The position numbers and the translations under genes were made by a program. Below the pieces are notes generated by a model. The model searched no databases and was not told where the DNA came from. It was given only the letters and a program-made list of their open reading frames with translations. A stretch of DNA of 64,000 nt from a virus: the IMG/VR virus record IMGVR_UViG_3300027625_000002. One strand, written 5' to 3'. Below are positions 42,603 to 43,505 of this stretch, one piece after another (position 1 is the first letter of the stretch; each line of letters starts with the position of its first letter).

Positions 42603-43019
42603 GTTTCTCCCCGGAAATGGCACATCGGCATCCGTACGACATGTACACGCGCTTGTCGCACCGCGGGCACGTGGGCCACGGTTCGCGCGTGCGCACGGTC
42701 CTGATCACGTACTTCGGCAAGTCCTCCTCGCCCGGCTCGTCGTTGAACGTCGAACGGAACGACAGGTCGAAGAAGCCGAACTCCCGGATGGTGCTCGCCT
42801 GGTACCGGATCCCGAGCCCGTAGCTCGTGGTCCGCTCTTCGATCCACGCGAGGTACTGGGCTTCGCACTCGAAGCAGTGGGCATTCGCCACGTAGAGGCC
42901 CTCGTGCTTGTCCCAATAGACGCCGCATTCGCTGCGCGTGATGTGGCGCGCGCGCTCTTCGAGCACGATGCGACCGTAGCAGAAGCGGCAGTTCGTGCGG
43001 CCGAGGTTGCGGCTCATCG
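42589..43019 (-). CDS. Cys-rich hypothetical protein
   Basis: Internal ATG of ORF 42589..43161. Confidence 0.5.
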
Positions 43020-43505
43020 GGGACCTCCCAGCGCGGACTCGACGTAGGCCGGCAATATGTTCTTGGATCTGTAATTGGCGACGAGCGACGGGTCCAGGTA
43101 CTGGCACCCGCTGATGACTCTCCTGCACGAGGCCGACCCGCACGTGCAGTCCATCCGCCACGTGCCGAGGTCGTCGGTGGAGGTCGTCGAGTAATCGAAG
43201 CCTAGCTCGGCGCCGGCTGGGATGTCCTCGAGCGCGAAGAGCGTCGCCCTGTTGTCGTCATCGATCCTCACCGCGCAGTTGGGCTCGCAGCTATGGTTCA
43301 AGTAGTCGTCCCCGCTGCGGGAGGCGCCGACGAACGCATCGGGTCCGACCTGCAGGATGTCGGCGCCGGCATCCGAGGCCTCTTGGCCGAAGAGCAGCGG
43401 GCCCTTGATCTCGAGCACGGCGCTGTCGGCAGGGATGGGTTCCACGGCGAAGACTCCGCGGCCATGTTTGCACGCTCGGATCTCGAGCCTCATGGGAACT
43501 GCCAA
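43014..43505 (-). CDS. SET-domain protein (putative lysine methyltransferase) with post-SET CxCxxxxC
   Basis: GRGVFA...NHSCEPN...ELGFDY...CTCGSASC motifs; 163 aa. Confidence 0.8.
   Translation of the reverse strand: MAVPMRLEIRACKHGRGVFAVEPIPADSAVLEIKGPLLFGQEASDAGADILQVGPDAFVGASRSGDDYLNHSCEPNCAVRIDDDNRATLFALEDIPAGAELGFDYSTTSTDDLGTWRMDCTCGSASCRRVISGCQYLDPSLVANYRSKNILPAYVESALGGPR

Follow-up and report, generated by a model that had tools for sequence, protein, structure and literature searches.

Several small SET-domain systems offer a point of comparison for virus-encoded enzymes of this family. The chlorovirus protein vSET is the precedent for a virus that methylates host chromatin. In the characterized prokaryotic examples, endogenous DNA-binding proteins serve as substrates, with Go1-SET of Methanosarcina targeting MC1-alpha and cpnSET of Chlamydia targeting Hc1/Hc2. 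The roles of stand-alone prokaryotic SET enzymes have otherwise been established mainly for a few pathogen effectors. A 2014 review, in which cpnSET is listed, had already made the case for SET genes as native to both bacteria and archaea (PMC3980110). BurB from Burkholderia thailandensis (PDB 9L4T/9L4V), among characterized prokaryotic proteins the nearest relative of the one described here, is a SET-domain L-methionine S-methyltransferase that works in a biosynthetic pathway (PMC12542666). A paper on a Stenotrophomonas phage names one open reading frame (ORF) a "SET domain protein" (PMC9025141), and our literature search found no functional study of a phage-encoded SET protein. Here we describe a SET-domain gene in a 64,000-nucleotide stretch of viral DNA (IMG/VR record IMGVR_UViG_3300027625_000002), which we call the window. 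We think it reasonably likely that this gene encodes a catalytically competent, minimal SET enzyme, an S-adenosylmethionine (SAM)-dependent methyltransferase acting on protein lysine, and that a very large bacteriophage, or an element resembling one, carries it.

The assignment of the protein to the SET family, with a post-SET cysteine cluster and aligned catalytic residues, is fully supported. The Pfam SET profile (PF00856) matches over positions 1-104 of 105 and scores 60.5 bits, well above the gathering score of 22.4 (E=2.4e-16), and a phmmer search of the PDB recovers SET1, MLL, NSD and ASH1L at ~1e-12 with the motifs in residue-for-residue alignment, showing that the match is not due to chance. 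The structure model is of high confidence, and superposing it on solved SET domains confirmed the predicted SET beta-fold. By sequence and by fold, the best matches are eukaryotic H3K4/H3K36 enzymes. NCBIfam gave no match to the protein and PHROGs a marginal one only. An earlier, sequence-only reading of this DNA had claimed the motifs GRGVFA, NHSCEPN, ELGFDY and CxCxxxxC and had proposed a profile search and a structure prediction as checks. All four motifs are present (Table 1), both checks bear the claim out, and the catalytic tyrosine and the Asn-His residues align with those of MLL1 and SET1.

Residue conservation was counted in a family alignment of 45 sequences (A1), numbered on the 159-amino acid (aa) form of the protein. 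The architecture consists of N-terminal beta strands carrying the GxG motif, a short insert, the SET-C pseudoknot, the post-SET cluster and a helical tail; targeting domains are absent, and the protein is a bare catalytic core. In the GxG motif, G13 is found in 44 sequences, and G11 and F15 in 43 each. The insert comprises one helix (residues 36-42) followed by a strongly conserved LQVGP. In the pseudoknot motif H67, C69, P71 and N72 are invariant and N66 is kept in all sequences except one (44/45). Y101, at the catalytic site, is present in all 45 sequences and the preceding D100 in 44, and the residue at position 99 is Phe in 34 sequences, Trp in six and Tyr in four. The post-SET cysteines C116, C118 and C123 are invariant, accompanied by G119 (42/45) and R124 (43/45), and C69 of the NHSC motif is predicted to join them as the fourth ligand of a Cys4 zinc site. 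The tail is modeled as two helices, at residues 135-143 and 149-154, and its Y141 occurs in 42 of the 45 sequences.

The enzyme is very probably active, and from its similarity to known family members we infer lysine as the acceptor. A Phe at the switch position of SET enzymes goes with the capacity for di- or tri-methylation; by this Phe/Tyr-switch rule F99, which is Phe in most relatives, predicts such a capacity, and the product would be a di- or tri-methylated residue.

The C-terminal tail is common to hundreds of 155-200 aa cluster representatives, in which profile matches reach positions ~155-160, and many cellular tblastn matches extend to residues 141-158. BurB also has the post-SET cluster and a C-terminal I(S/T)G tail, and its residues 145-155 (RRWITGAKELP) align to the tail of the phage protein. 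The sequence-only reading had taken SET proteins of bacteria and phages to be often effectors that act on host or nucleoid proteins. A real rival to this is that the phage enzyme could be a small-molecule methyltransferase of the BurB/MSMT type. It would then modify not a protein but a free metabolite, such as L-methionine, which would become S-methylmethionine (SMM), and in this way change the sulfur, SAM or osmolyte pool of the infected cell. All contacts of BurB to methionine are made by the main chain (PMC12542666), and there is thus no side-chain signature for methionine binding. The family scores higher against lysine methyltransferases than against BurB over the full length (97.7 versus 75.5 bits), and it has an aromatic switch residue (Phe in the phage protein) where BurB carries Met. 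The loop after the DY residues is also two residues shorter in BurB, and Pfam scans of the window found no BurI/D/E-like, SMM-processing pathway genes near the phage SET gene. We therefore regard a metabolite as an unlikely substrate, though one to be taken seriously, and keep protein lysine as the favored acceptor.

One link to very large phages comes from the closest relatives of the protein. A search of 5.8 billion proteins returned 91 relatives; apart from P0001, a metagenomic protein 99% identical to the window SET, the top ~40 are 44-54% identical. In a neighbor-joining tree of 178 phage, metagenomic, GTDB and IMG/VR sequences, a distance tree with no bootstrap support, the window protein and P0001 are sister to a 38-member clade that includes all verified phage copies, and sequences from cellular metagenome-assembled genomes (MAGs) lie further out. 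We define the huge-phage SET clade as P0002-P0040 together with the window protein and P0001. Clade contigs measure 167, 290, 491 and 496 kb, with shorter fragments of 17, 52 and 95 kb, and IMG/VR classes clade members as viral, with genomes of 210 and 340 kb. Every long clade contig that was inspected has the same neighborhood, with the core dUTPase-x-x-SET-RNase T-x-IF1. The full order is a release factor, dUTPase, a ~290-aa protein, a ~115-aa protein, SET, RNase T, a ~216-aa protein, an IF1-like protein, an IMPDH-like protein, ThyX and sometimes DHFR. A further neighbor of ~1560 aa has a C-terminus that resembles a phage tail fiber.

Within the clade dS is saturated while dN is 0.16-0.36, and the two pairs with a computable dS give dN/dS of ~0.08-0.12. 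The low dN against saturated dS, together with the constant neighborhood, indicates that purifying selection has maintained SET at its fixed place in these phages. The window is a diverged relative in a different setting. Clade loci have a GC content of 39-45% versus 62-65% in the window, the core synteny is absent from the window, and among the window proteins only SET matches the clade loci. On this last ground we rejected a conserved partner or substrate gene common to both phage lineages. An acidic isoelectric point, considered as a clue to a basic substrate, was likewise discounted, as the sister clade does not share it.

The window itself has a near-identical counterpart in an independent metagenome. 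A 1297-bp contig (L018, JGI 3300009522) is 99.85% identical across g105, g104, SET and g102, showing that the same element is present there. Both differences are non-synonymous, R76S in SET and V75A in g104; two changes in 1297 nt are uninformative on selection, for which the sister clade was used instead. One could read the single non-synonymous and absent synonymous change in SET as a sign of a degenerate or non-catalytic fold, serving as a binding module or decaying, although the changes are too few to inform on selection. Many small phage genes are dispensable, which is not direct evidence for this case either. A degenerate or non-catalytic fold is at odds with the SAM-binding, catalytic and zinc-ligand residues, all intact and conserved across the family, with the dN/dS of ~0.1 in the sister clade and with the highly confident structure model, and we find it scarcely credible.

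Two clade neighbors stand out as observations in their own right. The ~115-aa protein abuts SET upstream (L001 9620-10000, with equivalents in L002, L004, L019, L020 and L021) and combines a variable Lys/Pro-rich N-terminal tail (KK..KLP.SPPIKPK) with a strongly conserved C-terminal domain of ~70 aa. Because of where it lies, and because of its tail, it is a candidate substrate of SET in the clade phages. It is not found in the window, and hhalign comparison of its alignment (A3) shows it to be unrelated to g104 and g102. The ~290-aa protein encoded between dUTPase and the ~115-aa gene (L001 8809-9630) has invariant H..HD..E-type residues (AHALSMQCRFTGH ... LLHDASEAY). It is reminiscent of an HD-domain phosphohydrolase and is without a Pfam match. 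Pfam holds no family for the ~115-aa protein or for three other clade neighbors tested.

Beyond the clade, SET relatives are widespread. The sequence-only reading had called SET proteins uncommon in bacteria, which does not hold: the family profile, run on 1.84 billion cluster representatives, gave 35,704 matches at E<=1e-3, 13,364 at 1e-10 and 753 at 1e-30, and many of these representatives are stand-alone proteins of 155-200 aa. At least 552 confirmed GTDB loci carry relatives with 29-50% identity, and those listed span Proteobacteria, Actinomycetota (including Mycobacterium), Bdellovibrionota, Acidobacteriota, candidate phyla radiation (CPR) bacteria, Nitrososphaerota and other archaea. A further 68 plasmid records have relatives, mostly on Burkholderia, Paraburkholderia and Caballeronia replicons, under the PGAP name "SET domain-containing protein-lysine N-methyltransferase". 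The precedent of BurB, with its free methionine substrate, means that this label may be wrong for part of the family. The same reading had also called SET proteins uncommon in phages, and here the claim stands for GenBank, where tblastn found no relative in any of 50,697 phage records, but not for IMG/VR and BFVD, which do hold SET proteins of uncultured phages. BFVD contains four such proteins annotated "uncultured Caudovirales phage" (E 1.5e-6 to 2.5e-4; 11-21% identity to the window SET). More distant SET genes occur in unrelated contexts on a further 13 IMG/VR contigs (8-519 kb), two of which are giant-virus MAGs, showing that SET genes are scattered over several virus lineages. Four long hits of the representative search (P0092, P0093, P0094 and P0161; 799-1479 aa) are multi-SET repeat proteins with five to eight tandem matches to the stand-alone profile, scoring up to 429 bits. 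Altogether, the window SET is part of a phage-associated branch within a prokaryotic SET family that is very large and mostly uncharacterized, and it has no structural or architectural novelty.

The remainder of the window is phage-like in its organization. A codon-usage gene model yields ~145 genes covering 87% of the window, nearly all on the minus strand and with frequent stop/start overlaps, and GC content is 60-65% throughout (2-kb windows). Pfam matches were obtained for ~15 of the 145 proteins, none of them housekeeping, and ~90% of the genes are orphans. The AAA ATPase has its best relatives in the jumbo phages PBS1 and AR9 (39% identical). The vault-like protein is colinear with residues ~475-788 of the eukaryotic major vault protein (MVP; 6.9e-17) and is similar to it in total length, and its sole matches in GenBank phages are in uncultured phages of 462 and 735 kb (40% identity, 93% coverage). 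Within 20 kb on either side, the vault-like gene alone matches these two genomes. MVP homologues from viruses and from bacteria were described earlier, in preprints (bioRxiv 10.1101/2023.11.10.566534; 10.1101/872010). Huge phages are known to carry tmRNAs, tRNA-repair ligases and translation factors (PMC7162821). The co-oriented orphan genes, the tmRNA, RtcB, the RNA ligase and the matches to jumbo and huge phages fit this repertoire, and we infer, with good support, that the window is part of a huge phage.

Pfam and PHROG scans found no capsid, terminase or tail gene in the 64 kb, which leaves room for the window to be a megaplasmid, another giant extrachromosomal element or a chromosomal island, with SET as an ordinary cellular enzyme acting on endogenous proteins. 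The SET relatives on 68 plasmids, mostly Burkholderia-group megaplasmids, and at the GTDB loci would agree with such an origin, as would the NikA-like and ParB-like matches in the window and the existence of plasmid-like elements with translation genes (PMC7162821). On the other hand, the window has no DNA similarity to 72,556 plasmid records except for one tRNA-sized match, its SET copy groups with the phage clade and not with cellular sequences, and the matches of its large proteins are to phage families and to jumbo or huge phages. Its genes, ~90% of them orphans, are densely packed on a single strand. Scans of JGI metagenome contigs and of IMG/VR for exact 40-mers returned no match. We consider a non-phage origin improbable, and a very large phage remains the preferred carrier.

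Table 1. Coordinates of the SET gene, its motifs and other features of the window
Feature	Coordinates	Strand	Details
SET-domain methyltransferase gene	43014..43493	minus	159 aa from ATG at 43493, plus stop codon
Alternative SET start, TTG at 43505	43014..43505	minus	gives 163 aa
HGRGVFA (aa 10-16), GxG SAM-binding motif	43446..43466	minus	N-terminal SET region; alignment A1
NHSCEPN (aa 66-72), SET pseudoknot / SAM-binding motif	43278..43298	minus	aligns to MLL1 NHSCEPN and SET1 NHCCEPS
ELGFDY (aa 96-101)	43191..43208	minus	Y101, catalytic-site Tyr; F99, Phe/Tyr-switch position; aligns to SET1/MLL1 ELTYDY
CTCGSASC (aa 116-123), post-SET CxCx4C cluster	43125..43148	minus	aligns to post-SET of SET1, MLL1, ASH1L and BurB
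C-terminal extension (aa 124-159), RRVISG...YL...Y141	43017..43124	minus	35-residue tail shared with prokaryotic stand-alone SET proteins including BurB
g102, immediately downstream of SET	42589..43017	minus	142 aa, 9 Cys, three CxxC motifs; gene call
g104, orphan upstream of SET	43490..43780	minus	96 aa; no Pfam or PADLOC match; collinear in L018
g105, in the co-directional block of SET	43780..44352	minus	190 aa; N-terminal CxxC...CxxC zinc-ribbon-like motif; no Pfam or PADLOC match
N6/N4 DNA methyltransferase	24646-25383		PHROG match
tmRNA	34787-35160	minus	Rfam 88.2 bits; tag peptide ANDNAFAPALAA
tRNA-Met(CAT), adjoins tmRNA	35192-35266	minus	
RNA ligase	47540-48184	minus	PHROG 14301, 1.8e-45; weak Pfam RLIG1
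Vault-like protein	48757-51369	minus	870 aa; Pfam MVP_shoulder 1.5e-29, Vault_3 3.7e-8
Phosphoribosyltransferase	52720-53517		
RtcB	54120-55523	minus	Pfam 6.5e-85; also PHROG match
AAA ATPase	62737-63981	minus	PHROG 29662 "ATP-dependent protease", 1e-85

Other features of the window complete this picture. The RNA ligase and RtcB genes flank the vault-like gene in an arrangement that resembles a tRNA/RNA-repair module; such modules are thought to counter host anticodon nucleases. The AAA ATPase also matches PADLOC IetA (6.9e-15) and TRIP13 (4.5e-11), presumably through the common AAA fold. Two window proteins have Peptidase_S24 (LexA/CI-like) domains, one of them at 35329-35859 on the minus strand with an additional weak DUF7249 match, and PadR matches occur elsewhere in the window along with the NikA-like and ParB-like ones. 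Together, these matches suggest regulatory or partition functions and make a plasmid-like lifestyle conceivable. The only sizeable plus-strand cluster (20523-22497, six small genes) coincides with a sharp reversal of AT skew (+0.21 versus ~-0.1 elsewhere) and could mark an inserted module or a unit transcribed divergently. The tmRNA and tRNA are both of a kind typical for translation takeover by huge phages; they gave no host assignment, as Rfam returns a generic tmRNA only. No HU-, IHF- or histone-like protein was detectable among the 145 window proteins by Pfam.

The SET gene sits within a tightly packed block. The sequence-only reading had described a 163-aa protein; the ORF behind it exists on the minus strand and opens with TTG, but the ATG four codons inside it is the likelier start. 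This ATG overlaps, as ATGA (43490-43493), with the TGA that ends the upstream gene, and P0001 has a called length of 159 aa, for which reasons we took the shorter form as the SET gene. The choice concerns four residues and has no effect on the conclusions. The TGA stop of SET likewise overlaps the ATG of the downstream gene as ATGA (43014-43017), and with such overlaps at both ends SET is probably translationally coupled to both neighbors. The codon-position GC of the ORF (0.61/0.50/0.85) is the coding signature of the window, and the ORF was kept in the codon-usage gene model. Scanning 39.0-48.5 kb for promoters and terminators gave no terminator-like site on the minus strand in the SET gene block, and the overall site count was not above that of shuffled controls.

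The placement of SET among zinc-ribbon mini-proteins, also part of the sequence-only reading, is borne out at the level of motifs: at least two CxxC motifs occur in 12 of the 145 predicted proteins, and three of these (g102, g105 and g110) are encoded within 2.5 kb of SET. It finds no counterpart at the level of families, as none of the Cys-rich neighbors has an assignment above threshold or a functional tie to SET. The product of g102 has only a sub-threshold match to Pfam Phage_zn_bind_2 (E 0.0088; 16.4 bits against a 27-bit cut-off). The products of g100 and g112 are Cys-rich as well. PADLOC defense-system models matched neither SET nor g100-g102, g104, g105 and g113, and a role in anti-phage defense was rejected on these grounds.

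We propose the following course of action for the enzyme. SET would be transcribed within the long co-directional block of small genes, with its translation coupled to both neighbors. The protein would bind SAM at a site bounded by the GxG and NHS motifs and by the post-SET lid, which a zinc ion held by C69, C116, C118 and C123 would close. The substrate lysine would then enter a channel ending at Y101, where F99 would leave space for di- or tri-methylation. We would expect the target to be a protein, either one belonging to the infected cell or one of the phage itself. With low confidence, we prefer a basic protein that binds nucleic acids and is abundant in the infected cell, either nucleoid-associated or translation-related, so that SET would act as a host-takeover modifier; a target of this type is favored by analogy with Go1-SET/MC1-alpha and cpnSET/Hc1/Hc2. 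In a broader and more tentative form of this proposal, possible although we would not call it probable, the phage-specific SET lineage, maintained by purifying selection in phages of 39-65% GC, would be a dedicated host-takeover tool. It would place methyl marks on lysines of bacterial nucleoid or translation proteins, or of a protein encoded by the phage, and would thus be the counterpart of vSET among the viruses of prokaryotes.

The characterized bacterial SET effectors methylate eukaryotic histones (PMC3980110), and the eukaryotic H3K4/H3K36 enzymes are the best matches of the window protein by sequence and by fold. It could thus be imagined as a phage-borne "moron" effector, secreted by the bacterial host into a eukaryotic cell and methylating histones there like LegAS4/RomA of Legionella or NUE of Chlamydia. 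However, the protein is a bare catalytic core fixed in the genomes of environmental huge phages, and we hold this to be very improbable. An action inside the infected prokaryote is the one we prefer. A constrained SET gene fixed in half-megabase phages, and the presence of a diverged copy in a phage-like element that is unrelated and of high GC, imply a selectable role in infection. The interest of the gene rests on this constrained and conserved presence in very large phages and on the question of its substrate, which would reveal whether phages reprogram bacterial cells through protein methylation.

Compared with known systems, the likeness of the phage SET to the SET1/MLL (KMT2) and ASH1L/NSD/SETD2 enzymes is confined to the catalytic core. 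The phage protein is that 159-aa core only, without the N-SET/WIN motif, AWS/pre-SET, PHD or other reader domains; it has a shorter insert and an extra 35-aa helical tail at the C-terminus, and it has Phe at the switch position, unlike MLL1 and SET1, which carry Tyr there. The WRAD partners (WDR5-RbBP5-ASH2L-type) of the SET1/MLL-type enzymes have no equivalent among the 145 window proteins, in which Pfam finds no WD40/SPRY-type family. The setting differs too, since a eukaryote-type nucleosome substrate is not expected in a phage of a prokaryote. The cellular stand-alone SET proteins of prokaryotes have the same architecture and length as the phage SET, with 30-40% identity to copies in Burkholderia-group plasmids, Mycobacterium, Bdellovibrio, Nitrososphaerota and others. 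Unlike them, the window SET groups with the phage clade and sits in a phage-type gene block. It takes its place beside chlorovirus vSET (PDB 1N3J) and the giant-virus and BFVD uncultured-phage SET proteins, which are also virus-encoded minimal SET enzymes.
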